Assembly (NCBI GenBank): GCA_964510205.1
Contig: CAZEBW010000012.1
Location: 5,029 to 69,028, forward strand
Direction: 5' to 3'
DNA length: 64,000 nt
Source of the DNA: an uncultured Anaerolineae bacterium
Lineage (GTDB): Bacteria; Chloroflexota; Anaerolineae; VGOG01
Below are positions 33,077 through 51,658 of the stretch, piece after piece. The first letter of the stretch is position 1. Each line of letters opens with the position of its first letter. The translations under genes and the position numbers were made by a program. The notes below the pieces were generated by a model that saw only the letters and a list, made by a program, of their open reading frames with translations, did not search any database and was not told where the DNA came from.

Positions 33077-33087
33077 GGAATTCCCCC

Positions 33088-33116: not shown

Positions 33117-33197
33117 ATCAACGAATGATGGATCGGGAGTACCCGGTCGGGAGAGGAGAGTCTGCGTGACTCTCCTCTTGTCGTTAGAACGCGCCCG

Positions 33198-34076: not shown

Positions 34077-36480
34077 GGTGCACCACCTTCAATTGCAGTC
34101 GGATGGCCGTGCTCTCAGGCAGCCCAGCGATCAGTTTCTCCAGTTCGGCTTTGTCCAGCGGTAACTGGCGCTCATCGACCACAATGGCGATCTCGTGCAC
34201 TGTATCCTGTGGCCCCAATTCCTGCAGTCCCAGTGGTGTGTAGCCGACGATGGAGAGAGGCTGCGGAGTGGGTTCAGGGGTAGTGGGCGAGACGCCTTCC
34301 ACCGCTTCGCCCTCCGGGACAAGCCTCTTTCTCTTGCCCACCGCTGGGTAAATCAGTTCCCCTTCTTCCTCTCCAGGTGCTATTTCTTCTCGTGGCTCCC
34401 ACTGTTTGAGACGTTCATAGCGAGTCACGGAAAGCCCCTCGTGAGCGAAGAGCGGAAAAGTGTCACGTCCCGGCAGGTAGTTTTGCTTTAGCCCCTTGAA
34501 GCCAATCTCTCGGTTGCGATAAAGCTCCTGGAGCGCATTCTCGACGTCGTCTCGTTCTTTGACCATCGGATAGCGGCGGATGCGGAAGAAGTCGTCAATC
34601 AGGCGTTTGACCTCGATGAAATCCTGCTCCTCGAGGGTTTCCAGTATCTGATCATAGGCCGCATCTAGACCGGCCACGGCGCGCTGCTTGATCACCTCCA
34701 CGTCGGGGTCCACGTTGCGCCTGGACAACCTGCCGCCGGTCATCCACTGCACGTAGCGACCGTAGGCCTCCTGCAACTCTCCGATGAGCCGAGGGAGGTC
34801 CTCCTCGTTTTTCGTGGCCAGCAGCTCTTCGCGCAGTTCCTCGATGTCCCGCTGCTCGCCCGTCAGCAGACGCTCTTCAGCCACCACTCGTTTGGCATTC
34901 TCCAAATTGTCGTCCCATTCGTAGACGCTCTTCGTGCCCAGGAACGCTTTTGGCACCACCAACACCGCCCGGTTAGGCCAATTCAGTTTTCCCAGCGCAG
35001 CATTGATCTCATCGTCATCCATATCGCGCGGAGCCACGACAACTTTTAGCCGCTGATCATCAATGTCCTCCAATTCGGAGAACAGGTAAGCTCCCTTGCC
35101 AAACACCTTTTTCTTGATTAGCTCGTCAATCTTGGCTCGTGCCTCCTCATCTTCCACCCGGCCGGCCTCCGCTCGGACGATGGCATAGATGTTCAGTTCC
35201 GGGGTCAGTCGAAATCGCCCGTTGCCTTTTAGATGAAATGCCGTTCCGTCGAGCTGCTTGAGCGGCAAGGTGATATCGTTGACGCTTCCCTCTGGTCTAA
35301 GCAAACCCTGGACGAGTTCATCCCGCGTTGCGCCCGGCACGCTTGGGCGCAGCGAGTGGAAGAAAATCGTTGAGAGCAGAGCCTCGGCGTTCTTGATTTC
35401 CCAACAGCGCTCAATGTCCTCTTGAAGGGCCGTATGCAGTGTCGGATCAATGGAGAGCAGTTCGCGGGGGGGCACATCGGAGGGCAACAGTAGGTCACGC
35501 TTATCCAACTGGGCGGCTACCAAGGCAGCCAACGTACGCAACGTATCGCGGATGCCTTGCTGGCCTGGGCGAGCGTAAATCTCCTTGAGCGTAGTAAAGA
35601 GCCTGGGATGGAAGGGGTACAAATGGAGCATCGTCTCCACGGACAGGTCTTCAGTAGTGTAGTCACCATAGCTGGTTAGATAGGCCTCCACGATTCTTCG
35701 TGCCTTTTCCTCATCGCAGTGAGCAAAGAGCCGATGGTGTACGATAGCCCAGCGCTCTCCCACCGCGACCATGTTTTCGGATATGGCGCCAGTGCGTTGC
35801 AGCAGCGCTTTGAGGTCAGGATTCTGATCCAACAGAGAGATAAACAGGAAGAGATCGAACCCTGGCTCGCTGGCCACTTCAGTCAAATTCTGCAGAAAGC
35901 CCCGATTGCGTCCACGGCGTACCTCGTCAGCGGCGATGCTGTCATACCAGTTTTCGATCTCATCAATGAAGACAGCCAGTGTGCCCTTGCTTGCCAGCTC
36001 CTTGAGTTGTGAGATGGTGGGGTAATCCTTGATCTCGGACAGGAGATCCTCACGATTTGCCCGGCGAAACAAGGGTTCCCACAAATACTCGGGTTGATCC
36101 TCTTGAGCAGAGATCATGACAGCCCGAGGCTCACTAAGCGGCAGAGAAGGAAGGCCGTGATTCTGCAGCCAGCTCCTGCCTAGTTCTGGGTGGACAAACA
36201 GGTGATACAGCGCAATCAAGGCGTGAGTCTTTCCGCTGCCCATTCTGCCGATGGGCAGGAAGGCCCCCTGAACCCGATCACCTTCCAGTTTTTGGTGCAT
36301 CAGTTCGACGAAACGCTGTAGAGAAGCGGATGGATACGTGACGGCGAAGAAGAGTTCTGGGTTGTTTTCCAGCTTGTCGGCCTCAGCTTCCCGACCAACG
36401 CGATAGGCCCTCAGGTCACCCTGAAAGTTCCCGGATAGAACATCGGGTCGAGCCTCAACAATATCTTGGATCAACATCAC
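34069..36480 (-). CDS. large P-loop ATPase (DUF499-like)
   Basis: Walker A GRMGSGKTH, Walker B LAVFIDEIE; 803 aa; overlaps the downstream PglZ-like gene by 8 nt. Confidence 0.7.
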   Translation of the reverse strand: MMLIQDIVEARPDVLSGNFQGDLRAYRVGREAEADKLENNPELFFAVTYPSASLQRFVELMHQKLEGDRVQGAFLPIGRMGSGKTHALIALYHLFVHPELGRSWLQNHGLPSLPLSEPRAVMISAQEDQPEYLWEPLFRRANREDLLSEIKDYPTISQLKELASKGTLAVFIDEIENWYDSIAADEVRRGRNRGFLQNLTEVASEPGFDLFLFISLLDQNPDLKALLQRTGAISENMVAVGERWAIVHHRLFAHCDEEKARRIVEAYLTSYGDYTTEDLSVETMLHLYPFHPRLFTTLKEIYARPGQQGIRDTLRTLAALVAAQLDKRDLLLPSDVPPRELLSIDPTLHTALQEDIERCWEIKNAEALLSTIFFHSLRPSVPGATRDELVQGLLRPEGSVNDITLPLKQLDGTAFHLKGNGRFRLTPELNIYAIVRAEAGRVEDEEARAKIDELIKKKVFGKGAYLFSELEDIDDQRLKVVVAPRDMDDDEINAALGKLNWPNRAVLVVPKAFLGTKSVYEWDDNLENAKRVVAEERLLTGEQRDIEELREELLATKNEEDLPRLIGELQEAYGRYVQWMTGGRLSRRNVDPDVEVIKQRAVAGLDAAYDQILETLEEQDFIEVKRLIDDFFRIRRYPMVKERDDVENALQELYRNREIGFKGLKQNYLPGRDTFPLFAHEGLSVTRYERLKQWEPREEIAPGEEEGELIYPAVGKRKRLVPEGEAVEGVSPTTPEPTPQPLSIVGYTPLGLQELGPQDTVHEIAIVVDERQLPLDKAELEKLIAGLPESTAIRLQLKVVHRG

Positions 36481-36644: not shown

Positions 36645-36673
36645 TAGTATATCATCTTTCGTCTCGTTTGGCA
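36645..36673 (-). promoter_or_regulatory. putative promoter for the ATPase-PglZ-methylase operon
   Basis: minus-strand TTGCCA-17-TATACT. Confidence 0.4.
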
Positions 36674-36681
36674 AAAGCAAG

Positions 36682-36712
36682 AAGCCACCGGCGTCAGCCG
36701 CGCTGGTGGCTT
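36682..36712 (-). terminator. possible terminator hairpin
   Basis: GAAGCCACCGGCG...CGCTGGTGGCTTC stem; the trailing U-tract is weak. Confidence 0.35.
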
Positions 36713-36852: not shown

Positions 36853-37518
36853 TCACTCTTCACCGTCATCTCCTCGAAGGATCTGCTTGACGGTCACGTG
36901 GGCCGTGTGCGCTCCATTCCCCTCCGGCCAGTCGCGGTGGGCATCGAGGAGGATGCTCCACGTGGGCCCCTCAGCCTCCAGGACGGCCTCGCCACTGAAC
37001 AGCTTGACCCGACTCACGGTCTCGCCCTTGACCCCTGAGATGGCGTCCGCCAGCTCCCTCGGCGACCACGCCTCATCCAGGGCCATCTTAACCGCCAGCA
37101 CGGGGTGGTCTGCCTTGAGCGCCGTTTCGTACAGAAGCAGCGGCTGGTCGGGGAACACGACCTCTGGGGGGAAGGTACGGTGCAGCGTCTCGAAGGTTCT
37201 GAGCCGCCGCGTGGTGTAAGCGCAGGCGCTGGCCAGTGCCTTGTACGTGCCGTACTTGCCGAAGGCATCCACCGCCGAGGCCACCACCGCACCGATCTTC
37301 CACTGGCTGCCCCGCTCCCGAGACACACAGGACACGATGGCCTGCAGGGCATCGTCCAGGCTCTGGAAGCTGAAATCACGCTTCTCCTGGAAGGGATCGT
37401 AGTCCAAATCTGGAAAAGTCTTCGGGGACGAAGCCGCCTCCGAGCCGCAGTCGGCCGGCAGCTCCTTCCAAGACGTCTGCTCCTCGTCAACCTTATCTTG
37501 CCTCTGTGCTTCTTTCAC
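36853..37518 (-). CDS. hypothetical protein (probable GTG start coupled to the upstream HTH gene)
   Basis: the C-terminal 220 aa of the 407-aa ORF look protein-like, whereas the N-terminal half is R-rich noise overlapping a better ORF; GTGA start/stop overlap. Confidence 0.35.
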   Translation of the reverse strand: MKEAQRQDKVDEEQTSWKELPADCGSEAASSPKTFPDLDYDPFQEKRDFSFQSLDDALQAIVSCVSRERGSQWKIGAVVASAVDAFGKYGTYKALASACAYTTRRLRTFETLHRTFPPEVVFPDQPLLLYETALKADHPVLAVKMALDEAWSPRELADAISGVKGETVSRVKLFSGEAVLEAEGPTWSILLDAHRDWPEGNGAHTAHVTVKQILRGDDGEE

Positions 37519-37898
37519 CGATTCTGACTCCTCACCATCCGATCCATCAGCCCGTTCACGAACTCCCGCACCTCTGCATCGCTGACGTACAAGTCCTGCC
37601 ACCTGACGCCTGCCGCACGCGCTGCTCTCATCTTCTCGAGGGGCCGGCCCTCGCAGGCTGTCCATCCACCCTCGTCGAGGGCCTCCGCCACCGACATCAG
37701 GACGCGAGCAGCCTGCTCGATGGGAGGCGTGATGGGCTTGACGCCATGCAGCAGTTGGTGTACGTAGGACCTGCTGTAGGGCTGTCGCCCGATGGCGCGT
37801 CCCAGCAGTCGACCGAGGGTACGTAAGGTGATGGGCCCCTGGGCGCGGCCTTGGGAGAGGCGGTCTCTTAGGTTGCGCAGCGTCTGAGCGTCGACCAA
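37515..37898 (-). CDS. HTH DNA-binding protein (XRE-like)
   Basis: LRTLGRLLGRAIGRQPYSRSYVHQLLHG helix-turn-helix-like segment. Confidence 0.45.
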   Translation of the reverse strand: MVDAQTLRNLRDRLSQGRAQGPITLRTLGRLLGRAIGRQPYSRSYVHQLLHGVKPITPPIEQAARVLMSVAEALDEGGWTACEGRPLEKMRAARAAGVRWQDLYVSDAEVREFVNGLMDRMVRSQNR

Positions 37899-38480
37899 CT
37901 GAGAGCCTTTCTAAGCGGTGAACCCGCTCGTGCCATATCTTCACACGTGAACTGGCTTGCCGCCTGTTAGGAGCGCGAGCCAACGTCAATCCAACGAAGT
38001 TCGGAGGCAGGTCTCGCTCGTTCTCGCCTGCATGCGGTCGCCGACCCGCTGTCAGCCATGAGAGTCGACTATCCAATGGTCTCGGCGAACCCCAGCTTCT
38101 TGGGGCCGTTTTCCTCCAGCCACGGGTTGAGCCTGGTCAGGGGAGGGCGTCCCGGCACGACTGTACTCTCCACGTAGATACTGATGGCCATATACTAGAT
38201 ATATTGTACCACAGTTCGCTGCGTTGTCAAACTAGCCTTGACAGCAGCGACTATGGATGATGTTGGCGCACGGGCCAGCCTACGGCGCCAGGGCCGCGGT
38301 CACGCCGAGTTCGCCAGCGATGAAGGGAAGGGCCATGAGGCGGGGATCATGTCGCACGGGGGATCACGACGTAAGCCGCTGAGGTATCAAGCTATCATTT
38401 GCATTTCTGTCCATACGTGCTATAATATCCATCAGCCACACCCAACTGACGATAAGCTAAAGCAAGAAAAGGAGCGAGAA

Positions 38481-38855
38481 ATGCAACCCACACAGGACGA
38501 ACTGATCCGTCTGTCTGAGACGGCCGAGGATCTGCCCCATTTCCTGCGGGCGGCGTGTGAGGCCATGGACAGCAGTATGCGCAAAGCCTCGCTGGGAGCG
38601 GGCCTCAGCGCGGGGACGATTTGGAACATCGTCGCGGGGCACACCAAGCGAGGGGACGAGGAGACCCTCACCAAGCTGGCCCTGTTCTTCAAGGTCCCGG
38701 AGGTGAATCTGATGGCCCTGGCCGGCTACAAGCCCCGGCGGGTGTCCCCCACCCATCGTCTGGGGGAGGCGGAGGCGATCTGGCAGGTGCTCACCGACGA
38801 GGAGAAGGACAAGTGGATCGAGTACGGCGAGCTCCTGATTCGGGCGCGGCAGTAG
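38481..38855 (+). CDS. XRE-family HTH transcriptional regulator
   Basis: SMRKASLGAGLSAGTIWNIVAGH HTH; AAGGAG RBS; upstream TTTGCA-17-TGcTATAAT promoter at about 38395-38426. Confidence 0.6.
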   Translation: MQPTQDELIRLSETAEDLPHFLRAACEAMDSSMRKASLGAGLSAGTIWNIVAGHTKRGDEETLTKLALFFKVPEVNLMALAGYKPRRVSPTHRLGEAEAIWQVLTDEEKDKWIEYGELLIRARQ

Positions 38856-39245
38856 GGGAAAATCGCCCTCATCATCCACCCTCAAGGTGAGGGAGGGCTG
38901 CTCTGTGCCGCCCGCGCCTCGCCGCGAGCCCAACTCTCTTGGACCTTCGGATCAACCATCAACCCTGCCAACCTCAGGCCGTAGCGCAGGCCCTCCAGGA
39001 ACGGCTTCCCGCCGTGTCGGCCTGACCTGGCCTCGATTACGAGCTGCTCGATCTCGTGGAGTAGCGCTTGCCGCTGTAACGTTTCCATGAGTCTACACTG
39101 TCTCCTTTCCCCATCGACCTTCCAGAGCCACCGCCCTGTCGGGCGATAGGCTCGCCACGCCCCTATAGGGACTCCAAACCTCTGTGTTGAGTCAAAGGGC
39201 CACCTGTGTTAGCCGCGCAGGTGGCCTTCTCTTTGCCAAGGCGTA

Positions 39246-39911
39246 TCATTCCTCTGGCACGTCCCTCGCCAATCCCTGCGTCATGGCGTAGCGGACCGCC
39301 TGACTCCGCCTGTCCACTCCGATCTTGTCGTAGATGCGGTTGAGATGACTGCGGACCGTGCCGCGAGTGATGCAGAGGGTCTTAGCGATCTGCCGGTTGC
39401 TCAGCCCCTGGCCCACCAAGGCCAGGACCTCCCGTTCGCGCCCGGTCAGTGCGGGGAGGCCCTGAGACACCATCGGTGGCGCCCAGGGTGCACCAGGCTT
39501 GCTCACTAGCACGTTGGCCGCTCGGCTGCTGAGCCAGGTGTGCCCCTTGGCTACGGTGCGGATGGCCAAGAGCAGGCTCGCTGGCGACTCCTCCTTGAGG
39601 GCATACCCCGTTACACCAGCCTCTAACAGACCGAGGATGACCTCCTGGTCATCGCAGGCGGTCAGGATAAGGATTTGCACCTCCGTATGATGCTTGGCCA
39701 CGTGTCGCGTGGTGTCGACGGCGTCCAGTTCGGGCAGGGTGATGTCCAAGATCAAGACGTTCGGAGACAGCCTGTCGATGGCTGACTCTACTTCGTCGCC
39801 ACGGGCCACCTCCCCCACCACTTCCAAGTCCTGCTCACCGTTCAATAGGGTGTGGAGCCCAATACGGATCAAGGGCTGATCATCAGCGATCAGAATCCTG
39901 GTGCGATCCAT
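39246..39911 (-). CDS. NarL/FixJ-family response regulator (REC plus LuxR HTH)
   Basis: RILIADDQPLIRIGL...LILDITLPELD receiver; C-terminal LTGREREVLALVGQGLSNRQIAKTLCITRGTVRSHLNRIYDKIG. Confidence 0.8.
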   Translation of the reverse strand: MDRTRILIADDQPLIRIGLHTLLNGEQDLEVVGEVARGDEVESAIDRLSPNVLILDITLPELDAVDTTRHVAKHHTEVQILILTACDDQEVILGLLEAGVTGYALKEESPASLLLAIRTVAKGHTWLSSRAANVLVSKPGAPWAPPMVSQGLPALTGREREVLALVGQGLSNRQIAKTLCITRGTVRSHLNRIYDKIGVDRRSQAVRYAMTQGLARDVPEE

Positions 39912-40477
39912 GGCCGGGCTTCGGTTGGCGGTAAGTGGTAAACCGCTGGCCAGGCTGTCAGATCCGTCTGAATGGGGTGCGACCAGGTGATTGCCGATCG
40001 GGAGGAGTGGGAGGCGTGAGCGCAGTTCCACTCCTCCCGCCCACAGCGGGAGAGGTCGCTCCGTTGGCCTATGGAGAGGATACAGTTGTTGGGGGTAGCT
40101 CGATGCCCGGCACATAGGCTTCCGCCTGGATGGTCATGCTGCTGCGAACGGATAGAGAGGGTGCGTCGAGCGGGTGGAGGGGGTGGTCGTGTCCCGCGTT
40201 CCACGATTGGCATTCAGTATAGAACTAGTGTTCGCATTTGTCAACAGCCCTCGTGGGAGACGGGGGATGCATCCCAGAGGTACAAGATGTAGGGGGCGCC
40301 GTTGGCTACGACAACAACATGTTGTATCAAGGACACACTTATAGTTGTATCTATGGGAGGTGGTTCGCGTTGCCCCCAAACCAGTGTAGCCCGCGCTTGT
40401 GGGCCCAGGGATCGGTGGCCGTGCCATGCGTGACGGTCTCAGTCATCGGGGTTGCACGGTGACGCAGAGTGTCGGGT

Positions 40478-40620
40478 GCGAATGCGCAGGGGGGGGTATA
40501 TACCGGGGGTATAGGGCGCGTATACCAAAAGGTATAGGGGGGGGTATAGGGCGACTACGTAGAAGGGTATAGGGGGGTATAGGCGAGCATACGTCAAAGG
40601 GTAGAGAAAGAATCTACCGG
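40478..40620. repeat. iteron-like GGGTATAGG direct repeats (putative origin)
   Basis: at least 7 copies of GG(G)TATA(G)GG within 140 bp, immediately upstream of a primase gene. Confidence 0.5.
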
Positions 40621-40737
40621 GTAGTATACGTACTTTTGGCCAAAGTTATACTGTAAGGTAGACGCGGTTTCACGCGAATTCTGATATAATAGACAGCGAA
40701 CGTATCAACGCCGAGACAGACGCGAAAGGAGCCAACG

Positions 40738-40980
40738 ATGAACGGGAACGAAAGCACGTGCTGGGAGACGACCGACCTCTACCTGGTGGCTGCCCTGCGC
40801 TGCCGAGGCCACCAACTCCTCGACATCCGCCCAGGGGCCCGTCGGGCCACCTTCCTGCTGGAGGATTCCCCTGCTCTGCAGGAGGACATCAAAGCCTACT
40901 TCACCCGCAACCTTCACCTGGAAGCCATGGCCTACGCTGCCTCCATCAAGGACACCAAAGCCGCCATCTTCAACACCTAG
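40738..40980 (+). CDS. small hypothetical protein
   Basis: 80 aa; AAAGGAG RBS; TGaTATAAT extended -10 upstream. Confidence 0.45.
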   Translation: MNGNESTCWETTDLYLVAALRCRGHQLLDIRPGARRATFLLEDSPALQEDIKAYFTRNLHLEAMAYAASIKDTKAAIFNT

Positions 40981-41006
40981 CCCCAGCGCCCGGCAAGGAG
41001 CCAGAG

Positions 41007-43598
41007 ATGCGATACGATGACCTCAAGGAGCGGGTGCGGGACGCTAGTGCCATCGAAGAGGTGGTGGCCGAGACCGTGTCCTTGCCCGCTCGAAAGAGTC
41101 CCCAGGGATACAAGGTCCGCTGCCCCTTTCACGAGGACGCCCAGCCCAGCCTGCACGTCTACCCTCAAAGCGAGAGCTGGTGGTGCTACGGATGCCAGCG
41201 CGGCGGCGACGTCTTCGACTGGGTGCAGTGTAGGGATGGGGTGGATTTCCCCCAGGCGGTGCGGACGCTGGCCGATCGGGCTGGCCTACACTGTCCACCG
41301 CGCACCGCCGAGCAGCAGTCAGCAGCTCTCAGACAGCGGGCCCTCCAGGACGTGCTGGCTCAGGCTGCAGCCTTCTATCACCAGGCCCTGATGAACACTG
41401 CCCCCATCAAACAGAGTCAACTGGATCGCGGCTTCAGCGAGGACACCCTGCGAGCCTTTCGGGTGGGCTACGCTGGCGCAGGCCGTCTACTAGCGCAGCA
41501 CCTGCGCCGCCAGGGCGTGGATGCAGGGCTGGCTCAGGAGGCCGGGCTGCTGTGGGACGACGGGCGAGACACCTTCACCCAGCGCATCATCTACCCCGTC
41601 CTCTCGCGGGGTCGCGTCGTCTACCTCACCGGCCGTGCCACCACCGAGAAGCAGGTGAGAGCTGGCAAGAAGTACTACCACCTGCGCGGCCCGCGCCCCC
41701 TGTTCCATCCCGACGCGCTGCGCGGGCAGGGGCCGCTGTTCCTGGTCGAGGGGCCCACCGACGTGTTGACCCTGCACCAGTGGGGAGGGCGGGCGGTAGG
41801 CCTGATGGGCCTGGGGAAGCTGTCGGATCGCGACCTCTCGATGATACGACGCGCCGAGACCGTCTACGTGGCCCTGGATAGCGACGAAGCGGGTCGGCGC
41901 CGCGCGGAGGAGCTGGCCCGAAGCATCGGGCCGCTGGCGCACGTCTTGGCCTGGCCTGAGGGTATCCAGGATGCTAACCACTACCTCACCACGGGCCACA
42001 CCGCCGAGGACTTCCAAGACCTGGTAGGCGGTGCCCCCACCCTGCTGGAGATGGACATCGCTCGCACCGCACAGCAGGAGGGAGCCAGGCAGGAAGCACA
42101 CCTCAAGCAGCTCTTCACCCAATTGACCGCACTCACTCCCTTCGCCCTGGCGCGCTACAAGACCCTGGTGGCCAGCAAGCTAGGGATCAAAGCGCGGGAG
42201 TTCAGCCGCCTGCTGAAGGCGGCGCAGGCGGCCCAGCAACTTCAGAACGGCCCTCCCCAGATCGTGGAAGGCCGCTACCGCCTCATCTCGCCGGCCCTGG
42301 ACTTCCTGGACGACGTGGCCTGGGTGACGGTGCCCCTCCTGGTGCAGCAGGGCGCGCGCTTCGAGCACCAGCCCTATCTGGTCACCAGCACGCGGGAGCT
42401 GCTGCCTCTCCAGGAGGGGACGGCCCTGGAGCTGGACGGCCGCTCGCTGGTGGTGCGGGAGTGGCCGTCGGCGTTGGGCCGCTCCCCCCGTTGGGAGTAC
42501 GGCCACATCCAAGCCTTCCTGCAGGGCGACACGCCCCAGCCCCAGGACGTCTTCGGTAGGGTACGCGCCCTGTACGACAAGTACCTGGACTTCCGCCATC
42601 CGCACACCGCCGACGTCCTGGCCCTGTGGGCCATGGGCACCTACCTGTATCCGTTGTTCGAGACCTATCCCTACATCGCCCTGATGGGGCCCAAGGGCAG
42701 CGGCAAGACCAAGACCATCAGCCTCACCGCCAGGCTGGCCTTCAACATGCGCGTCACCAGCGACATCTCCCCCAGCGCCCTGTTCCGTGTGGTGGAGGCC
42801 ACGCGGGCCACCTTGGGCATCGACGAGAGCGAGCGGCTGTCGCACGGCCGCGACGCCGTGGTCATGAACCTGCGCTTGCTTTTGAACGCCGGCTACAAGC
42901 GGGGCTCGCCGGCCCTGCGCATCGAGGGGGAGGACTTCAAGGTGCGGGAGTTCGAGGTGTACGGGCCCAAGATCCTGGCCAGCATCCGCGGTCTGGAGGA
43001 CGTCTTGGAGAGCCGCTGCATCCTGATCACCATGCTGCGCACCACGACGTCGAAGGGCAACCTGACCATCTCCGAGTCGGGGGAGGACTGGGCTGGGGTG
43101 CGGCACGAGCTGTACAGCCTGGCCCTGACCCACCACGGTGGTGTGCGATCTCTCTACGAGGGGGACGCCAGCCTACGCTTCCTGACCAATCGGGACAACG
43201 AGCTATGGCTGCCGCTGTTGTCGCTGGCCAAGCTGTTGGAGGAGCGGGGCGTGGCGGGGCTTCTGGAGCGGGTGAAGGCTTACGCCCTGGACAGCAGCCG
43301 GCAATCGGAGGGCAGCACCCTGTCCGATTGGGAGCAGGCCCTTCTCCTGGCGCTGCGTGAGCTCACCGAGTCCGAGGAGCGGTGCGATCTGACCACGGGG
43401 GCCATTCGCAAGGGGATGAGCCAGTTCCTGGAGTCGGGGGAGTGGGAGGAGCTGCGACCGCAGTGGATCGGCTACGCGCTAAAGCGGTTGGGCTTCAGCG
43501 ACAAGACCCGCCGTCGGAGGGGCAACGTCTATCATATCATCGGCCGCGAGGTGCGGGAGCTCATGGAGCGGTACGGGGTGGAAGTGCCGCTTGAATAG
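41007..43598 (+). CDS. DnaG-type primase (CHC2 zinc finger plus TOPRIM) fused to a C-terminal P-loop NTPase domain
   Basis: CPFHEDAQPSLHVY...WWCYGCQRGGDVFDW; TOPRIM LFLVEGPTDVLTL...VALDSDEAGRR; Walker A MGPKGSGKTKT; AAGGAG RBS. Confidence 0.8.
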   Translation: MRYDDLKERVRDASAIEEVVAETVSLPARKSPQGYKVRCPFHEDAQPSLHVYPQSESWWCYGCQRGGDVFDWVQCRDGVDFPQAVRTLADRAGLHCPPRTAEQQSAALRQRALQDVLAQAAAFYHQALMNTAPIKQSQLDRGFSEDTLRAFRVGYAGAGRLLAQHLRRQGVDAGLAQEAGLLWDDGRDTFTQRIIYPVLSRGRVVYLTGRATTEKQVRAGKKYYHLRGPRPLFHPDALRGQGPLFLVEGPTDVLTLHQWGGRAVGLMGLGKLSDRDLSMIRRAETVYVALDSDEAGRRRAEELARSIGPLAHVLAWPEGIQDANHYLTTGHTAEDFQDLVGGAPTLLEMDIARTAQQEGARQEAHLKQLFTQLTALTPFALARYKTLVASKLGIKAREFSRLLKAAQAAQQLQNGPPQIVEGRYRLISPALDFLDDVAWVTVPLLVQQGARFEHQPYLVTSTRELLPLQEGTALELDGRSLVVREWPSALGRSPRWEYGHIQAFLQGDTPQPQDVFGRVRALYDKYLDFRHPHTADVLALWAMGTYLYPLFETYPYIALMGPKGSGKTKTISLTARLAFNMRVTSDISPSALFRVVEATRATLGIDESERLSHGRDAVVMNLRLLLNAGYKRGSPALRIEGEDFKVREFEVYGPKILASIRGLEDVLESRCILITMLRTTTSKGNLTISESGEDWAGVRHELYSLALTHHGGVRSLYEGDASLRFLTNRDNELWLPLLSLAKLLEERGVAGLLERVKAYALDSSRQSEGSTLSDWEQALLLALRELTESEERCDLTTGAIRKGMSQFLESGEWEELRPQWIGYALKRLGFSDKTRRRRGNVYHIIGREVRELMERYGVEVPLE

Positions 43599-43693
43599 GG
43601 GAGGCGCGATGCCCTCGCCCGACGGTCACCCGAAAAGCCTACACCGCCGCAGGGTCTCCGAGCGCGTCCTGAAGGGTCTGTTAGCCTGTGGGA

Positions 43694-43766
43694 GGTGTAG
43701 GGTGTGTAGGGTTGTGTAGGCTTTGTAGGGTGTGTAGGCTTTTTGGGGAAGTACGATTTCATTTGC
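43694..43766. repeat. 73-bp inverted repeat, copy B (partner at 1804-1876)
   Basis: reverse complement near-identical to 1804-1876. Confidence 0.8.
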
Positions 43767-44225
43767 ATTTTGGGTGAAGGTGATGGTTGGGATGGCAGGC
43801 GTTGGACACCCTCCATTGATGTCGAATAGGAATGGATATGTCTTTGGTCTCTGTTTTCAAAGAAGAAAGACAAGCACAAGGGAAATCGCAGACAAATACC
43901 GCTGCACAGGGTTCGTGGTGGATACCGACTGACCCCATCGCTCACAGACGGCTGATTGCTGTCTTGGCCGAGATGGCGAAGTTTGTGCTAGACGCTCGCG
44001 AACAGGCGCCGCCCGAGTCGCCAGCCAAGGAGATGTCCGCAGATGACGCTGTGTCGTGAGGCATGAACCTTAAGAATCGAGCACCGCACGGCCCAAGCTG
44101 GAGGGGGATTGGGGGAAGGGGTGAGCGCTCCCTTGACACGTTGGCGTATTTGTGGTATAATATGGTTGTTAAGGTGTACGCGATAGCGTAAACCATACAT
44201 AAGTGTCATCAAGGTAGGAGCGGCA

Positions 44226-44429
44226 ATGAGTATGATCGTAGAGGAGAAGAGAATCTACGGGCCCAAAGAGGTAGCACAGATCCTGCAGCTATCGGAGCGG
44301 ACCATCCTGAGGCATCTGAAACAGGGAACGATTCCTGGCTTCAAGGTGGGAAGGAGATGGCGAGTCTATGGGCGCGACCTTCTCGCCCTCAACGAGTTAG
44401 AACAGTCTGAGGAAGAGCAAATGGCGTAA
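44226..44429 (+). CDS. excisionase-family HTH DNA-binding protein
   Basis: KEVAQILQLSERTILRHLKQGTIPGFKVGRRWRV matches the Xis-type HTH. Confidence 0.6.
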   Translation: MSMIVEEKRIYGPKEVAQILQLSERTILRHLKQGTIPGFKVGRRWRVYGRDLLALNELEQSEEEQMA

Positions 44430-44623
44430 GTACAGCGGGCCGTGCAGGTGCTAGAGACACCCACACGACCCTAACCCAATCGCTGACCACCGTTGCAGGC
44501 AACAGCAATCGGGCTGTGAATATGATACCATAGCCTGAGACCATAGTCAAGTATGGTGGCCTACCTGCATCGTCAGCGAGATGGATGCGGGTAGGCCACT
44601 TTCGTTTTGAGAGGAAGAAGACA

Positions 44624-44905
44624 ATGACGAGCAAGCGATACTGGCAGGACGACGAGATAGACTGGCGGTGGTTGAACCGCGCGGCCTGCGGGGTCGCCGG
44701 CAAGCTCTCAGACGACGAGAGAATCGTTGCCCAGTCATATTATCTGGGCGGCAAGCTGGCGGTCTTGAAGCGGCTGGCCGAGATGGGCGAGATCGAGGTG
44801 GACGAGAACGCCCAGGCCGCTGCCCAACAGTTTTCAGCATATCTGGCAGGGCGGCACCGCCGACACAGCAATTGGGCTCGGGGCCGCAAGTCGGCGAGTC
44901 ACTAG
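44624..44905 (+). CDS. hypothetical protein
   Basis: ORF with GAGGAAGA RBS; no motif. Confidence 0.3.
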   Translation: MTSKRYWQDDEIDWRWLNRAACGVAGKLSDDERIVAQSYYLGGKLAVLKRLAEMGEIEVDENAQAAAQQFSAYLAGRHRRHSNWARGRKSASH

Positions 44906-44917
44906 GAGGCTACCGAA

Positions 44918-45421
44918 ATGACTGAGAAAGCAGAGCGCTATCGGATTCATTCGCACATGACCCGCTCCCGATTCCTCCACGCGGAGGACGCTCTGGACAT
45001 CGGCAAGGTACGCTTGTTCAGCGGCGAATACGTCAAAGGTCAGGGGGCAAAGGCGACGGCAGCGCATTACGTGGACGTGGCCGATGCCAGGGTGCTATTC
45101 TCCGACATGGCCTGGGGGAGAGCGGTAGACTACATCGAGTACAAAGGCACGGCCAACGGCGGGCAGCCCACAAGTCGGGTGCTGAAAGTGCGAACCAACG
45201 GCGAGAAGGTGTGGTTCAGGCTGGAGAATGGCCCTGGTGAGGTTGTGGGCGAGGGGGCGGTCAAGCCGAAGGGGGATGCCGATGTGGTTGTCAATGTCCC
45301 CTTCACCGTCTGGGAAGCTCGACGGTTGGCCTTTGCGGTGCTGGCTCATTTAGACGCCTGGGAGACAGTGACCTTCTGGGAGAGAACGGGGAGGGAAGGG
45401 GGTGATGCGTTTGAGTGTTGA
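44918..45421 (+). CDS. hypothetical protein
   Basis: 167-aa ORF. Confidence 0.4.
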   Translation: MTEKAERYRIHSHMTRSRFLHAEDALDIGKVRLFSGEYVKGQGAKATAAHYVDVADARVLFSDMAWGRAVDYIEYKGTANGGQPTSRVLKVRTNGEKVWFRLENGPGEVVGEGAVKPKGDADVVVNVPFTVWEARRLAFAVLAHLDAWETVTFWERTGREGGDAFEC

Positions 45422-45583
45422 AGTCAAGCGGGAGGACCTTCATCTGGTCGAGTGCGAAAGCCTGTGGAGCCTGCTTCGCCGCACCGTGCTGTACCGGCCC
45501 TTGGTGCTACGTCCCAAGGACGGAGTGCAGGTACAGTGCTGGCTGGCGAGGCTGTGGGATCTCATGATAGAGAGGAGGGAACG

Positions 45584-45829
45584 ATGATTTGTCTGCAGTG
45601 CCAACAGGAGATTGAGCTGGGGAAGCGAGTGTTTGTGATCCCCTTTCCAGCTTGTGCTGAGGATGCCTTTCTCTTCGCCCATCCGGGTTGCATGCCCAAC
45701 CTGGAGGGCAGGGAGAACGTCTTGGACGGCTACTACGTCGAAGGCAGCGAGCGCTTGTTCGTCCCTCGCGAGATGGTAGCAGCCTTGAAAGGGGAAGGGA
45801 ACAGCAAGGCGGCTAAGCCAAGAGCCTAG
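45584..45829 (+). CDS. small zinc-ribbon protein
   Basis: MICLQCQQ... ; GAGGAGGG RBS. Confidence 0.35.
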   Translation: MICLQCQQEIELGKRVFVIPFPACAEDAFLFAHPGCMPNLEGRENVLDGYYVEGSERLFVPREMVAALKGEGNSKAAKPRA

Positions 45830-45945
45830 CCGCCCCTAGAGGGAGCTCCTGTGTGTCCTGACGGGCTCCAGGGGCTCCCGCCTCTACTACAAGAGGTGCT
45901 GAGAGCGCAAAAAAGCTAGATTAGTAAGTATTGGAGGTATAGAAG

Positions 45946-48024
45946 ATGGAGCGAAGCTTTGATTTTGGCGGACGCATCAGACCCAAAGAGGAAGCGCCCT
46001 TGTCTTGGGCCAACTTGGTGGAGTTGCCCTGTGAGAAGATGGCCTTCGTCTATCAGCGACTGAGCTCCCACGAGCAGGTCAAGAAGTCCATCTACTCGAT
46101 CAAGCTTCAAGATGCACTGGCTGACCTCGCAAGGGAAGACGGCTACAAGGATGACCAAATCCATGTCGAATCGCGCGACCTGGGGGTCAGCGGCACAAAG
46201 GGGAGGGAGGAGCGCGAGGGCTTGGCCTATCTCATTGAACATATAGAGACTGACCAGGTAGAAGCCATCTACGTTGTACACATCAGTCGGCTATTTCGTG
46301 ACCAGACCCTCATAGATGCCTTCAGCTTCGGAGAGCTATGCAAAGCCCACGGTGTCATCATCGTCACGCCGCACATGCGACTGAATCTTCGCGATAGGAT
46401 GCACATGCGGATGTATCGTATGGAGGTCGAGCGAGCCGCCGACGAGTTAGAGTTGATGAAGGCCCGACTTGGGACCGCGAGGGATCTCAAGGCCCGACAG
46501 GGTTTCTACGCTGGCGAAGGTGTTCCACCGGGCTATGTGGTTGACTATAGAGAGGAAGTAGACGGGCAAACGAACCCTAACTACCAGAAGCTGAGACCGT
46601 ATGCTCCTCACGCCAAGGTCATTCGCTTCATGTTCCGCCTTGCCTGCCGGGGCAAGACACCTACCCAGGTCCTCCGCTGCTGCGAGCAGCAAGGAACTGT
46701 CTTCCCTCCGTTTCCACCGCGACTGGAGAATGGTACCAACCTAAAGGCGTTCCCTCGATTGAAGCGCAATCCTGATGGTAGCTGGCCTGCGACGGTGAGC
46801 AAGATACGCAGTATTCTGCAGAACCCTGCCTACATAGGTTGGCGGTTGTGGGAGGGAGAGGTAGTTGCTGTCGACAATCACGAGGCCATCGTAGAGGAGA
46901 CGACCTTTTGGGCCGTTCAAGAGCAGTTCAACAGTCGACCTCACCGGCCGAAGAAGGACAGGCCCCCACTGCCCTTGGGTGGTATCCTATACTGCGGTAA
47001 CCATGATTTGCCACGACGGATGATCTATGCTAATGGTCCGCAGGGGAAAGACGGAAGCTACCAATGTCGTTCTGACTATGAAACCGAAATCTGCTGCAAG
47101 ATCGCCGAGCGCATTCTAGACGATCCAATTTCCGAGGCCGTTGTCTCTCAATGCGCCTTCCCCGATACAGCTGAGGCCGTGCTGAGCAAGTTGACCCATG
47201 AGTACCAGCAAGCCAAGGAGCAGACGGCATCCTATCGGCGCGAGGCCAAACGCCTGGAGCGAGAGGTGGAGAACCTGGAGCACAACTTCTTCTTGAGGCT
47301 AACACCGGAGCGAGCAGCATGGACTGAGAGAGAGATCGCTGATCGCCAGAAACGCATCGCCGAACTGACGGATTTGACAAACACTCCGGCTGGCAAGGTA
47401 ATCGGACCGGTCGTCACAGAGGACGACGTTGAACTAGTGAAGGCGTTTCTGGCGGATCTGAGTACCGGTTGGGACTGTCAGCCCAACGATCTCAAGAACA
47501 CATTTCTCCAGCTTGTGCTCGACAGCGTTGTCATCTACCATGAGACGGCAACCATTCGGGCTCGCATCGTTTGGCAGACGGGTCTAGAGCAAGAGATATT
47601 GATACACCGTCCACCTGCCAACTCGCGCTCCCGCAACTGGACTGAGGCTGAACTTGCCATACTAAGAGAGCATTTTGAGACGGGGAGCATAGCCGAACTC
47701 ACGGCTATGTTGCCCATCCGATCTTGGCGGGCCATCAGTTTGAAGGCAAACAGCATGGGCCTACACCGTCCCGACATGGTCGGGGGCAGGGGGCATAGAG
47801 GCACCTTCTCGCGCTGGACAAAGGAAGAGGATGAAATTCTGCGTCAATACTACACGGGAGAAATCTTGCGGGAGGAGATGTTTGAGAGGCTGGACAGAAC
47901 ACCTGCTGGCATACTCAGGCGTGCACACAGGCTTGGCCTTGAACGCGACACCAGCGTCAAGTGGGAATGGTTGGACAAGGGTCTCACGGTTACAAAGCGT
48001 GGGCGGTCTGCGCTGCCACGGTAA
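45946..48024 (+). mobile_element. large serine recombinase (integrase)
   Basis: N-terminal resolvase domain with AFVYQRLSSHEQ (catalytic Ser), large recombinase domain, zinc ribbon, coiled coil; 692 aa. Confidence 0.9.
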
Positions 48025-49174
48025 CGACGAGGGCTTCGTTCAGCACCTCGACAGCCTGCCTGGCGGTTCCGGGTGAAAGCGCCTTCGCCAGCAGCCTCTC
48101 AAACCATCTTTGCAGCGAGGGGGTGTAGAGGATCAGGCCCAGGGTGGCAGCGAACGACAACTGGAAGCCCAGGTCCCACAGGGTTTGGGGATTGAGGAGG
48201 GTCATCAACGTGGCGGCGGCTATCAGCGAGGTGAGGGCCTCGGTCTGGCGGCCATAGTGGGTGGCGATGACGTAGAGGCAGCCCATGATCGCTGCTCGCA
48301 CCACGGCAGCCGAAGCTCCCACCAGGATGGTGTAAATGATGATGCCGGCGATGGCCACCGGCATGGCCCGCCGTTTGCCAAACAGGCGCGTACTGAGCTT
48401 GCTGAAGAGCCCTGAGATGATGGAGATGTTGAAGCCTGAGATGGCGATAATGTGGGTAGTGCCCGTGGCCGAGAAGGCTTCCATCAGGTTGGCGGGGATG
48501 CCCGTCTCGATTCCCAGGAGTATGCCCGTCAGCAGCGCGGCTTGGGGCTCGTGCAAGATGAGGGCGATGACGTTCTGGGCTCTTCTCTTGAAAGCCAAAA
48601 GCGCGCTTCTTAGAGGGCTGCCTCGGCCACGCTCTACGAGGGTGATTTGAGGACGCCATAAGACCGAGTAGATGCCCTGGCGAGCCAGATACTCTCGGTA
48701 GGAAAAGTCCTCTAGCTTTGGCGGAGTCTCCAGCAGGCCCTCGATATCGAGCCGGTCGCCGTAGTCGTACTGCGGATAGCGGGGAGCGCGCACCAGTACG
48801 ACGCCCGTCACTTTGTGCTCCTGACCCTCCATCTCTATCTTGGAGACCGCCACCCGCAGGTTGGTGTAGGTGTCGCGCACATCGGGCTCGCCGCTGACAA
48901 CGCCTTCGATCTGTACCCAGCCCTGGTCATTGTAGTGAGCTATGTGGTCTTCATCGAAATCCTGGAGAGGCGCAGTGGCGTTGAAACGCAGCGCGCCCAA
49001 CAGTAGGGCGAGGAGGCAAGCGCTGGCCAGACGGATGGGGCGTTCCCGCCACCAGAGGATGATGACGGCGGCGGGCAGTGCCGCTGCCAGCCAGATCAGT
49101 TCTGTCGGCACCTGGAGCACGGAGGCCAGGTAGATGCCCAGAAGCCAGGCGCTGCCGAGATAGGCGAGGATCAT
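47990..49174 (-). pseudogene. comEC: ComEC/Rec2 N-terminal fragment (DUF4131 plus competence domain), truncated at the recombinase gene
   Basis: HIIAISGFNISII competence-domain signature; ORF ends ...VVTVAAQTAHAL inside the serine recombinase 3' end; no metallo-beta-lactamase domain follows. Confidence 0.6.
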
Positions 49175-49564: not shown

Positions 49565-51658
49565 ATGAAAAAGAGACTTGCTCTCATCGCCCTGGTCGTG
49601 GCCTTGATGGTGGGCGCGCTCCCCACTACTAGCCCGACTGGCCAGGCTCAAGGTTCCCTACAGAAAGCGGCCGAGGCCTATTTCAGTGGTGGGCCGAAGA
49701 CGATCACCGCCGCCGACTTGTTCGAGAATCTGAACGATGGCGATCCCGAAAACGATCCGTACCTCATCAGCGTGCGTTCGGCGGAGGACTATGCCAAGGG
49801 TCACGTGCCTGGGGCGGTGCACATGGATGTGAAGGAGCTGTTCAGCACCGAGAACCTGGCCACGATACCGCCGGACAAGGACGTGGTGGTGATCTGCTAC
49901 ACGGGGCAGTCGGCGGGCCAGGCGACGGCGGCGTTGAACATGCTGGGCTACGAGGCCTACAGCCTGCTGTTCGGCATGTCCTCCTGGACTAGCGATCCTG
50001 AGGTATTCGTCAAGCGGTTCAATCCTGAGACACACGCCAGCGACTACGCCGTTGACACCGAGGCCTACGAGCCGGGCGGTCCCTACAGCCTGCCCAGTCC
50101 GTTGGCGACGAACGTCGCCGGTTCCGCCCAAGCCTACTTCAGCGGTGGGACGAAGACGGTCACCGCCGCCGATCTGTTCGAGAATCTGAACGACGGCGAT
50201 GCGGAGAATGATCCGTACCTCATCAGCGTGCGTTCGGCGGAGGACTATGCCAAGGGTCACGTGCCAGGGGCGGTGCACATGGACGTGAAGGAGCTGTTCA
50301 CCACCGAGAATCTGGCCACGATTCCTGCTGACAAGGACGTGGTAGTGGTCTGCTACACGGGCCAGTCGGCGGGCCAGGCGACGGCGGCGCTGAACATGCT
50401 GGGCTACGAGGCCTACAGCCTGCTCTTCGGTATGTCCTCCTGGACCAGCGACCCCGAGGTGTTTGTCAAGCGCTTCAATCCTGAGACACACACCAGCGAC
50501 TACGCCATTGACACCGAAGCCCACGAGCCGGGCGGCCCCTACGAACTGCCGTTCGTGGTGGCTCCTGTGGCTGTCGAAGTAGCTGGCGTCGGTGAAGTCG
50601 CGGAGGTCTACTTCAGCGGTGGGCCGAAGACGATCACCGCCGCCGATCTGTTTGAGAATCTGAACGACGGCGATCCCGAAAACGATCCGTACGTCATCAG
50701 CGTGCGTTCGGCGGAGGACTACGCCAAGGGGCACGTGCCTGGGGCGGTGCACATGGATGTGAAGGAGCTGTTCAGCACCGAGAACCTGGCCACGATACCG
50801 CCGGACAAGGACGTGGTGGTGATCTGCTACACGGGGCAGTCGGCGGGCCAGGCGACGGCGGCGTTGAACATGCTGGGCTACGAGGCCTACAGCCTGCTGT
50901 TCGGCATGTCCTCCTGGACTAGCGATCCTGAGGTATTCGTCAAGCGGTTCAATCCTGAGACACACGCCAGCGACTACGCCGTTGACACCGAGGCCTACGA
51001 GCCGGGCGGTCCCTACAGCCTGCCCAGTCCGTTGGCGACCAACGTCGCCGGTTCCGCCCAAGCCTATTTCAGCGGTGGGCCGAAGACGGTCACCGCCGCC
51101 GATCTGTTCGAGAACCTGAACGATGGCGATGCGGAGAACGATCCCTACATCATCAGCGTGCGCTCCGCTGAAGACTACGCCAAGGGTCACGTACCTGGGG
51201 CGGTGCACATGGATGTGAAGGAGCTGTTCAGCACCGAGAACCTGGCCACGATACCGCCGGACAAGGACGTGGTGGTCATCTGCTACACGGGTCAGTCGGC
51301 GGGCCAGGCCACGGCGGCGCTGAACATGCTGGGCTACGAGGCCTACAGTCTGCTGTTTGGGATGTCGTCGTGGACGACGGATCCAGAGGTATTCGTCAAG
51401 CGCTTCAATCCTGAGACACACGCCAGCGACTACGCCATTGACACCGAGGTCCACCAGCCCGGCGGCCCCTACGAGCTGCCGTTCGCGGTGGTCGAGGAAG
51501 AAGCCAAGCCGGTCCCCAAACCAACGCCGGAAGCTGGACTGGTACCGGTGTCGGTCGGGGCCATGAACTGCGTGACCTGCCACACCGACGAGGCAAGCCT
51601 GAAGGAACTAGCTGTAGAGAAGGAGGTCAAGTCGGAGGAAACCTCCGGCGAGGGCTGA
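49565..51658 (+). CDS. secreted protein with four tandem rhodanese domains and a C-terminal CxxCH heme motif
   Basis: signal peptide; four copies of ...CYTGQSAGQATAALN... (rhodanese active-site Cys loop); CVTCH near the C-terminus. Confidence 0.8.
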   Translation: MKKRLALIALVVALMVGALPTTSPTGQAQGSLQKAAEAYFSGGPKTITAADLFENLNDGDPENDPYLISVRSAEDYAKGHVPGAVHMDVKELFSTENLATIPPDKDVVVICYTGQSAGQATAALNMLGYEAYSLLFGMSSWTSDPEVFVKRFNPETHASDYAVDTEAYEPGGPYSLPSPLATNVAGSAQAYFSGGTKTVTAADLFENLNDGDAENDPYLISVRSAEDYAKGHVPGAVHMDVKELFTTENLATIPADKDVVVVCYTGQSAGQATAALNMLGYEAYSLLFGMSSWTSDPEVFVKRFNPETHTSDYAIDTEAHEPGGPYELPFVVAPVAVEVAGVGEVAEVYFSGGPKTITAADLFENLNDGDPENDPYVISVRSAEDYAKGHVPGAVHMDVKELFSTENLATIPPDKDVVVICYTGQSAGQATAALNMLGYEAYSLLFGMSSWTSDPEVFVKRFNPETHASDYAVDTEAYEPGGPYSLPSPLATNVAGSAQAYFSGGPKTVTAADLFENLNDGDAENDPYIISVRSAEDYAKGHVPGAVHMDVKELFSTENLATIPPDKDVVVICYTGQSAGQATAALNMLGYEAYSLLFGMSSWTTDPEVFVKRFNPETHASDYAIDTEVHQPGGPYELPFAVVEEEAKPVPKPTPEAGLVPVSVGAMNCVTCHTDEASLKELAVEKEVKSEETSGEG

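Follow-up and report, generated by a model that had tools for sequence, protein, structure and literature searches.

Why does a competence gene in an uncultured Anaerolineae bacterium (Chloroflexota) break off halfway, tail to tail with a recombinase gene? The question is raised by 64,000 nt of contig CAZEBW010000012.1 (assembly GCA_964510205.1), hereafter the window, to which coordinates refer unless another locus is named. In the window, a string of genes on one strand ends in a 692-aa open reading frame (ORF; 45946-48024), which is convergent with a 394-aa ORF on the opposite strand (47990-49174) and overlaps it by 35 nt. The first encodes a large serine recombinase (LSR) and the second the 5' part of comEC. 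An earlier note, made from the letters alone, had read positions 40478-49174 as a replicon-like element inserted into comEC. Every component that it named is present: iterons, a primase, an excisionase of helix-turn-helix (HTH) type, small ORFs, the 692-aa LSR, and a truncated ComEC. Its interpretation is supported as well, although an element that continues past position 1 and takes in the defence island, and a cognate excision role for the HTH protein, are still conjectural parts of it. We place the probability that an LSR element interrupts comEC here at about 85%. The case is real but of a known kind, since related integrases repeatedly target comEC in Anaerolineae. The features that carry this reading are as follows.

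45946-48024, + strand: LSR, 692 aa, with Resolvase and Recombinase domains; its last 5 codons (SALPR) are supplied by antisense comEC DNA
47990-49174, - strand: comEC 5' fragment ORF, 394 aa; residues 1-389 are host, and the last 5 residues (TAHAL) and the stop come from the element
48009-48010: crossover dinucleotide of the element/host junction at site A, inferred from junction comparison; TG on the + strand, CA in comEC orientation

comEC is cut at a conserved site

By Pfam, the comEC ORF comprises DUF4131 and only positions 2-166 of the 270-position Competence domain and has no metallo-beta-lactamase (MBL) domain, so that it is a fragment and not a complete ComEC, cut before the last transmembrane helices and the MBL domain as the earlier note had proposed. 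A protein search with the fragment returned Anaerolineae homologues that cluster at 394, 431, and about 506 aa, along with forms of 640 to 685 aa that carry the MBL domain. When aligned, the short forms track the long ones up to discrete points and then diverge. The window ComEC ends at ..LAAQ|ITTLP, in the channel domain, after residue 389 of about 794, and alignment to intact homologues, a check that had been suggested, shows it departing exactly after ..AAQ. We refer to this break as site A; it recurs in P0002 (83% identity) and P0007/P0008 (70%). A second break, site B, lies 29 codons downstream, after ..LPAQ, in P0003-6 and P0010.

This position is not a natural end of the protein, an outcome that would have spoken against the insertion, because related metagenome-assembled genomes (MAGs) carry full-length comEC: a scan of GTDB genomes recovered nine MAG loci (L023-25, L028-32, and L034; about 77-84% identity to a hybrid reference) in which an uninterrupted comEC, MBL domain included, extends to about 794 aa. 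Intact comEC genes of different species show strong conservation of the DNA around site A. The window junction itself is present both in the NCBI contig and in Logan contig L001, which come from different assemblies. The other half of comEC lies outside the window, as had been claimed: tblastn with six intact or long homologues found no comEC 3' half in the 64 kb, and all alignments stop at 48008. With the inferred junction at 48009-48010, host DNA comprises 48011-49174. Of the span originally assigned to the element, the element itself is there, but 40478 is the start of a repeat cluster and no demonstrated boundary, and the start codon of comEC lies at 49174. A cell with the element integrated would be unable to make full-length ComEC, and DNA uptake is probably lost or altered.

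The recombinase belongs to a family that targets comEC

The 692-aa protein matches Resolvase (PF00239, E=4.6e-13) and Recombinase (PF07508, E=5.4e-11) in Pfam and integrase phrog_95 in PHROGs (E=4.6e-63). It contains the catalytic motifs YQRLSSHEQ (Ser40) and SRLFRD, with R77-D78 and S114-R115..R118 invariant in three family members. Residues 96-528 align with SPbeta SprA structures (E=2e-8), the match to the XisF model is weak (52 bits against a cut-off of 375), and the score against the NCBIfam CcrC model (21.5 bits) is far under its cut-off of 900. The protein also has a Cys cluster, a predicted coiled coil or helical stretch, and two Myb/SANT-like C-terminal repeats, and a WEW motif immediately precedes the crossover. 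The homologue in L004 has a weak precomputed match to Zn_ribbon_recom.

A prophage reading was considered and dropped. PHROGs detected no phage structural, packaging, or lysis genes in 36.8-48 kb, its matches being confined to the primase, the excisionase, and the integrase, and IMG/VR scans returned no relatives of the LSR or the primase, just matches to the Myb-like repeats.

A metagenome scan with an alignment of three LSRs as the query recovered family members of 39-76% identity. We counted the 13 loci with at least 300 nt beyond the LSR 3' end, and comEC lies beyond that end in 10 of them. L004, L045, and L046 are at site A. In L004, the locus of P0007, a 698-aa LSR (57% identical) converges on a comEC fragment with the same 35-nt overlap, and L045, with an LSR 76% identical, repeats the convergent junction of the window; the overlap between the LSR end and the ComEC frame, which the earlier note had pointed out, is thus common to the window, L004, and L045. 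In L046, the LSR is followed by the 3' half of comEC, co-oriented. At site B, the 3' half stands directly behind a co-oriented 694-aa LSR in L009 (P0127; 57% identical to the window LSR) and is co-oriented in L047, and the arrangement is convergent in L051 and L057, the latter with an internally deleted LSR. A third site is represented by L052/L053, where the LSR is followed by a 3' half that begins near residue 553. The LSR family is specialised on Anaerolineae comEC, with at least three sites and both orientations.

The site-B element in L047 shares with the window element the C-terminus of the primase (79% identity), a small ORF (74%), and the excisionase (Xis; 94%), with just 47-56% identity in the integration cassette, which indicates that the backbone is shared and the integration module has been exchanged. 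Ten upstream genes are common to L006, split at site B, and L007, with an intact gene; the two also have a nearly identical comEC, and therefore occupied and empty site-B alleles coexist in one species. This polymorphism concerns a sister site-B element and not the window's own.

Among more distant relatives, genes for ParM-like, ParB, and FtsK/SpoIIIE proteins lie near the LSR. Phage structural genes are absent from all members of the family. This content, together with the lack of phage genes, points to integrative plasmid-like elements or integrative and conjugative element (ICE)-like elements rather than prophages, and it recalls the integrative conjugative elements of actinomycetes. The FtsK/SpoIIIE-type translocase genes are at 2-1084 of L064 and 6953-8257 of L050, the ParM-like genes in L050 and L051, and the ParB gene in L050. 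The portion of the element visible in the window has no identified gene for transfer or partition.

ComEC forms of about 506 aa (site C) were examined as a possible third LSR site and rejected: L011 shows a histidine-kinase gene and a decayed duplicate and no recombinase. At 5677-10787 of that locus, comEC occupies two separate genes, one of 507 aa and one of 303 aa that encodes the MBL part, with no recombinase nearby; the intervening DNA holds a histidine-kinase gene (GAF-GAF-HisKA-HATPase) and a decayed duplicate of residues 426-478. The many database proteins of about 500 and about 303 aa suggest that this split layout is widespread.

A probable distal junction lies on other contigs

With the last 405 aa of an intact homologue as the query, many 3' fragments were recovered, and P0132 is the only one in NCBI and Logan that begins at site A at about 85% identity. 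It is encoded on Logan contigs L010 (SRR7048218) and L005 (SRR7048220), and SRR7048220 also yields the window-junction contig L001. On L010 and L005, the 3' half begins exactly at Q|ITTMPIIVYNF, preceded by a 140-nt arm that is not comEC. From this arrangement and from the rebuilt attP and LSR tail described below, we conclude, on sequence grounds, that the 140-nt stretch is a genuine distal arm of a window-type element. The arm and the window likely belong to the very same element, given the same sample series, the complementary breakpoints, and a divergence from the reference that agrees between them. A fourth breakpoint was also considered, at the point where P0132 diverges, and rejected; it is a frameshift instead.

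Additional comEC pieces occur around these junctions. P0012 is a complete, diverged comEC 5' gene without the MBL domain (506 aa, 63% identical to the window fragment), located at 1-498 of L010 and 759-2422 of L005. It consists of residues 1-487 plus a conserved tail and is situated 140 nt upstream of the host 3' half, co-oriented, at the apparent distal end of the element. Genes similar to P0012 exist elsewhere, as in L011. A 79-aa ORF at 1718-1957 of L002, about 220 nt past the site-B junction and inside the site-B element, is a ComEC N-terminus: it corresponds to residues 1-75, is 84% identical to the window ComEC, and differs from the host copy on L002.

Two alleles (MILAYLGSAWLLG.. and MTLIYLGCAWLAG..) are known for the first approximately 60 residues of ComEC, seen in the window (49174-48995) and in loci L002, L020, L024, and L045. 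These alleles are distributed independently of the remainder of the gene, which suggests recombination among comEC copies. Taken with P0012, L011, and L002, they suggest that the elements carry pieces of comEC along, which then recombine with host copies.

Crossover site and attachment sequences

In comEC orientation, the site-A junction reads GCAGCG-CA-GACCGCCCACGC in the window, and the corresponding sequence of intact genes, which is attB_A, reads GCAGC(C/G)-CA-AAT(C/T)ACCAC; the empty attB sequence is ...GTTACCGTGGCAGCG-CA-AATTACCACCATGCCCATC... At site B, L006 has CCTGCC-CA-GGCGGGAAAG, L009 has CCCCGTC-CA-ACCTGGAGTG, and an intact gene has CCTGCC-CA-ACCGGGGGTG. Judged from these alignments, the CA dinucleotide would be the sole crossover consistent with all junctions at sites A and B. 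In the intact comEC genes of L024 and L028, the inferred crossover codon is ACA (Thr) instead of CAA/CAG (Gln), so that the CA core is displaced by one base; this substitution could affect susceptibility to the integrase.

The element side of the junction contains one further feature.

47960-48008: integrase-proximal attP arm, within the LSR ORF; homologous to the proximal arm of L046

The proximal arm, CTCAC(G/T)GT(T/C)ACAAA.., is common to the window and L046, but in the two it is joined to opposite attB halves. In serine integrases, the polarity of the core relative to the arms sets the orientation of insertion, and the opposite orientations in the window and L046 appear to reflect opposite polarities of the CA core within attP.

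We rebuilt attP_A from the window LSR up to the core and the reverse complement of the 140-nt arm from the other contig, giving ..GAGGTCGTAGGT-CA-GACCGCCCACGC.. or, in longer form, ...CATAATGAGGTCGTAGGT-CA-GACCGCCCACGCTTTGTAACCG... Dyad symmetry of the rebuilt attP_A is 11/24, best at the inferred centre, and attP_A and attP_B score 11-12/24.

Joining the arms extends the LSR ORF by 42 codons, SDLRPHYDDECLVRFPLPAETLVSLARMLAYTEEALIGDTCPS, and a stop. Site-B tails, obtained likewise from the L009 LSR and the arms found in L006, L002, and L036, read SRRE(R/T)H(Y/C)ALGW(S/T)(M/I)DAET(L/F)(I/M)(Q/K)(V/M)(A/T)RLL.. and are homologous to the site-A tail (0 of 2000 shuffles reach the score). A contiguous 747-aa LSR, P0297, contains a similar motif, ..LTADTLLAIARVL.. 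(9 of 2000 shuffles), and its locus, L064, has no adjoining comEC; resemblance in P0281 and P0324 is weak (49 and 66 of 2000 shuffles, respectively). The comparison suggests that in this family the 3' end of the LSR gene contains attP and that integration swaps a conserved tail of approximately 42 aa (..PAETLVSLARML..) for 5 host-encoded residues. In the literature covered by our search, no description was found of a natural serine integrase with attP inside its own gene.

The element contains a putative replication module

The genes and sites that precede the LSR are the following.

40488-40606, + strand: iteron-like repeat cluster with 5 copies of (G/A)GGTATAGG and degenerate copies with a GTATA core, in a 35/32-nt periodic array; putative origin
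40590-40737: AT-rich stretch, with a G+C fraction of 0.41-0.46 (0.41 at 40590-40700) versus 0.59 for the window
40738-40980, + strand: DUF5659 ORF, 80 aa (PF18903, E=4.8e-8), between the iterons and the primase
41007-43598, + strand: primase-helicase, 863 aa, with an N-terminal CHC2 zinc ribbon, DNAG_N, and Toprim and a C-terminal P-loop AAA+ region (approximately 420-863)
43838-44059, + strand: conserved small ORF, 73 aa, with 74% identity in the site-B element L047
44133-44161, + strand: perfect sigma-70 consensus (TTGACA, 17-nt spacer, TG-extended TATAAT) ahead of the Xis-to-LSR genes; a consensus match only
44226-44429, + strand: HTH_17 excisionase-family protein, 67 aa (Pfam and PHROGs); candidate directionality factor or regulator
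44624-45587, + strand: small ORFs of 93 aa (44624-44905), 167 aa (44918-45421), and 60 aa (45405-45587), from ORF calls
45584-45829, + strand: Cys-rich ORF, 81 aa (MICLQCQQ...), directly upstream of the LSR; alternative candidate directionality factor

Iterons had been placed directly upstream of the primase gene, and the repeats were indeed found by search, with the DUF5659 ORF in between. The motif (G/A)GGTATAGG occurs as five exact copies on the same strand within 77 bp (40507-40583), and a single further exact copy exists in the 64 kb. Matches to this motif with one mismatch allowed number 19 in the window versus 7.3 ± 2.6 in shuffled sequences, and none of the 100 shuffles reaches 19. The AT-rich stretch beside the repeats is a possible DNA-unwinding region of an origin.

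The true start of the primase is at 41007, the mechanical ORF start at 40758 being spurious. Its description as a P-loop replication gene is borne out by CHC2, DNAG_N, and Toprim in Pfam and by an AAA+ helicase fold in the C-terminal half. That half has no Pfam match, and its AlphaFold model (42 homologues; pLDDT 92.6) resembles MCM, ORC, SCCmec Cch, and NrS-1 by Foldseek with E values of about 1e-6 and TM-scores of only 0.35-0.42; for the Cch structure 5dgk, E is about 4e-6 and the TM-score 0.39-0.41. DUF3631 is matched in 7 of the 43 aligned primase sequences (query plus homologues). As modelled, the gene at 41007-43598 is a DnaG-type primase fused to an MCM/Cch-like AAA+ helicase, beside an origin-like region. 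The marks of an iteron replicon are present, with clustered direct repeats and AT-rich DNA by a primase gene and with the primase fused to an AAA+ helicase. Together, the iterons, AT-rich DNA, and primase-helicase would form a putative self-replication module, from which an excised circle would replicate like an integrative plasmid.

Between this module and the LSR, the candidates for a directionality factor are the HTH_17 Xis-like protein and the Cys-rich 81-aa ORF, the latter because its divergence parallels that of the LSR (approximately 50-52% in L009 and L047). The 93-aa ORF has 47% identity in L047.

Extent of the element and possible cargo

Should both junctions be ends of one element in a collinear assembly, that element extends at least 48 kb leftward from 48008. 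Membership of the following features is uncertain.

36853-40115: region of uncertain membership, with a 407-aa ORF (- strand), an XRE-like HTH gene at 38238-38855 (+ strand), a 68-aa ORF, and a LuxR-type response regulator at 39246-40115 (- strand)
1-36480: region of uncertain membership and possible cargo, with a CRISPR array, cas genes, and defence genes
5333-10932: CRISPR array of 74 repeats, repeat GTTTCAGTCCCCCGAAGGGGATTCGTCGTTTTTCTAC; possible cargo
11223-23497: type III-D-like cas locus, its adaptation module associated with a reverse transcriptase, with Cas2, Cas1, a separate adjacent reverse transcriptase, Cas6, several RAMP proteins, and Csx11; possible cargo
24421-36480: defence cluster with an HhH-GPD glycosylase, a 719-aa protein with two HATPase domains, a Dcm C5-methylase, a DUF1156 methylase, a PglZ-like protein, and a DUF499 ATPase

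The DUF499/DUF1156 pair corresponds to NCBIfam 'antiphage-associated' models, both matches being far under the equivalog cut-offs. The CRISPR spacers match neither the element and window nor any fetched locus. No boundary was found in 36853-40115. Comparison of 20 related loci with the window revealed no conserved neighbours on either side of comEC; a left boundary cannot be defined by synteny because the comEC flanks are not conserved among relatives.

A 24-nt stretch at 36666-36689 (GTTTGGCAAAAGCAAGAAGCCACC), followed by a hairpin, matches positions 4067-4090 of L009 at 23 of 24 nt. The L009 match lies 3 nt past the comEC stop, and the sequence has a single copy in the window and none in the other fetched loci. 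The possibility that it is a relic of a comEC 3' end was rejected, as it points the wrong way for a collinear remnant and the position where comEC would be expected holds a DUF499 gene.

Elsewhere in the window, tandem repeats with a 56/112-nt period (3840-4263; 70-78% matches) lie just ahead of the CRISPR array. On the other side of comEC, 49565-51658 encodes a secreted-looking protein with four rhodanese repeats, which corresponds to a 456-nt DNA tandem repeat (3.9 copies, 87% matches), and is followed by multihaem-cytochrome-like (many CxxCH motifs, by eye), Fe-S, and cytochrome b genes. Neither an Rfam search across the whole window nor a tRNA scan gave a match.

Weighing the explanations

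Our preferred explanation is that 40.5-48.0 kb is the integrase-proximal end of an integrative plasmid-like element, inserted by LSR-mediated site-specific recombination at the conserved site A of the Competence domain. After excision, the circle would replicate from its own iteron origin with the primase-helicase. The other junction would most likely be on a 124,956-bp contig of the same sample series and, if this partner is correct, the type III CRISPR-Cas locus, the DUF499/DUF1156 defence genes, and the response regulator would all be part of the element.

Several observations weigh against this account. The window contains a single junction, and matches to the distal arm or the B' arm in its 64 kb are at chance level only; the complementary junction is known only from the separate contig of the same sample series, which may belong to another genome. 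The partner 3' half is frameshifted near residue 712, and therefore precise excision might not restore a working gene. The backbone held in common with a relative spans only the primase to the LSR, and nothing left of 40.6 kb recurs beside other members of the LSR family, so the defence genes may instead be chromosomal or form an island of their own. As for directionality, the HTH_17 Xis is 94% identical in L047, whose LSR is only 56% identical, and the two do not covary; an upstream small gene as a family-wide directionality factor was rejected, as the gene preceding the LSR varies across the family. Excision, replication, and loss of competence, moreover, are predictions.

The limits of the common backbone and the lack of recurrence to its left equally favour a small element of about 7.6 kb, from the iterons to the LSR, with chromosome or an older separate island left of approximately 40.4 kb. 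The comEC 3' half would then have been lost or moved by later deletion or rearrangement, or elements would have accumulated in tandem at one site. The LuxR-type response regulator is an ordinary chromosomal type of gene, and the surroundings of comEC in relatives are patchy, with extra comEC fragments (L002, L010, and L011), indicating that rearrangement and accretion occur. We nevertheless consider a small element unlikely, although the strongest of the alternatives: no att-like sequence, comEC remnant, or distal arm is present near 40.1-40.5 kb or elsewhere in the window, a cognate distal arm with a site-A 3' half exists on another contig of the same sample series, and the elements in L050 and L051 run for more than 10 kb from the LSR with no sign of the other comEC half.

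A second proposal, which would add to the insertion rather than replace it, is somewhat more doubtful still: that the integrase exists in two isoforms according to the state of the element and that P0012 rewires ComEC into a split channel-plus-nuclease pair. A free circle would encode an integrase of approximately 730 aa with a conserved C-terminal helix (..AETL..ARxL..), and the integrated copy would encode the 692-aa form without it. The difference could bias directionality or stability, constituting an integration-dependent switch on a serine integrase. P0012, which would land directly upstream of the host 3' half, might pair channel with nuclease rather than simply abolish ComEC.

It is improbable that the element is a domesticated switch, through active lysogeny or developmental excision, that rebuilds comEC to turn on competence in the manner of the Listeria comK prophage or SPbeta/spsM. 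The insertion is precise, within a coding region, and at a conserved codon; the LSR resembles SPbeta SprA and XisF, its ORF is intact in the integrated state, and a strong promoter-like site precedes the Xis-to-LSR genes. The coexistence of split and intact alleles in one species, known for the sister site-B element, could also be taken this way, but such polymorphism is equally expected from ordinary gain and loss. The retention of plasmid-like replication functions, with transfer functions in relatives, fits a selfish element, and the decayed LSR in L057 and the frameshifted 3' half in L010 indicate that some insertions are dead ends.

Finally, the many Anaerolineae ComEC database homologues of 394, 431, or about 506 aa without an MBL domain might suggest a naturally short or split ComEC, or the junction an assembly chimera, but we give virtually no weight to an absence of insertion, as the short forms fall into three discrete breakpoint classes with non-homologous sequence beyond them and LSR genes at sites A and B, related MAGs normally have the gene at full length, and the same junction appears in an independent Logan assembly and in other species.

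Comparison with known systems

In the conflict between bacteria and their genetic parasites, the disabling of competence genes by mobile elements is a central case, known so far mostly from cultured pathogens; the insertion described here extends the pattern to uncultured Chloroflexota. Beyond the phylum, its points of interest are the diversification of related elements over several sites and two orientations of one gene and the probable exchange of the integrase tail. Genome engineering seeks matched sets of LSR, attP, and attB, and the integrase family provides a natural series of such related sets. If the tail swap is functional, it would represent a new control of serine-integrase directionality and, if the defence island is cargo, CRISPR-Cas and restriction-like systems would travel on an element that blocks DNA uptake.

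The proposed exchange of the tail has its closest analogue in mycobacteriophage BPs, in which attP lies within the repressor gene, a tyrosine integrase acts, and immunity depends on integration. As in BPs, attP would be within a coding sequence of the element and integration would alter the C-terminus of a protein; here that protein would be the serine integrase itself, and in BPs it is the repressor. Any regulatory consequence of truncating the integrase is speculative.

The replication module recalls actinomycete integrative and conjugative elements (AICEs), such as pSAM2, and the pri-rep-ori modules of Staphylococcus aureus pathogenicity islands (SaPIs) and phage-inducible chromosomal islands (PICIs): those elements integrate site-specifically and, once excised, are copied from an iteron origin by a primase or helicase of their own, and FtsK/SpoIIIE, ParB, and ParM-like genes are found in relatives of the window element. 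In AICEs and SaPIs, integration is mostly by tyrosine integrases, at tRNA or intergenic sites. SCCmec provides the closest pairing of an LSR with an MCM-like helicase, being a nonphage LSR cassette that encodes Cch. It differs in integrating at the 3' end of rlmH (orfX) without destroying the gene and in using a CcrA/CcrB pair or CcrC.

In splitting a coding gene that excision could rebuild, the element resembles SPbeta (SprA/SprB, spsM), skin (SpoIVCA, sigK), the A118-like prophage in Listeria comK, and the fdxN element (XisF); the first three serve as its mechanistic model. Those systems have experimentally demonstrated, regulated excision and known directionality factors, whereas the window element is known from its sequence, is related to them only at remote identity, and has another target gene in another phylum.

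Closest in target are Phi1207.3, Tn1207.3, and Phi10394.4 of Streptococcus pyogenes and Tn1207.1 in celB of Streptococcus pneumoniae, serine-recombinase elements that are inserted in the comEC coding sequence at a specific dinucleotide (PMC4260502); targeted integration into competence genes has been reviewed (PMC12378983). Like this group, the window element is a serine-recombinase mobile element that disrupts comEC. Unlike it, the window element is in Chloroflexota rather than Bacillota and occupies another position in comEC. The Phi1207.3 group comprises a prophage or defective transposon with three resolvase-family genes and macrolide resistance, whereas the window element has a single 692-aa LSR, a primase-helicase and iteron module, and no phage structural genes, the recombinases being compared by description only.

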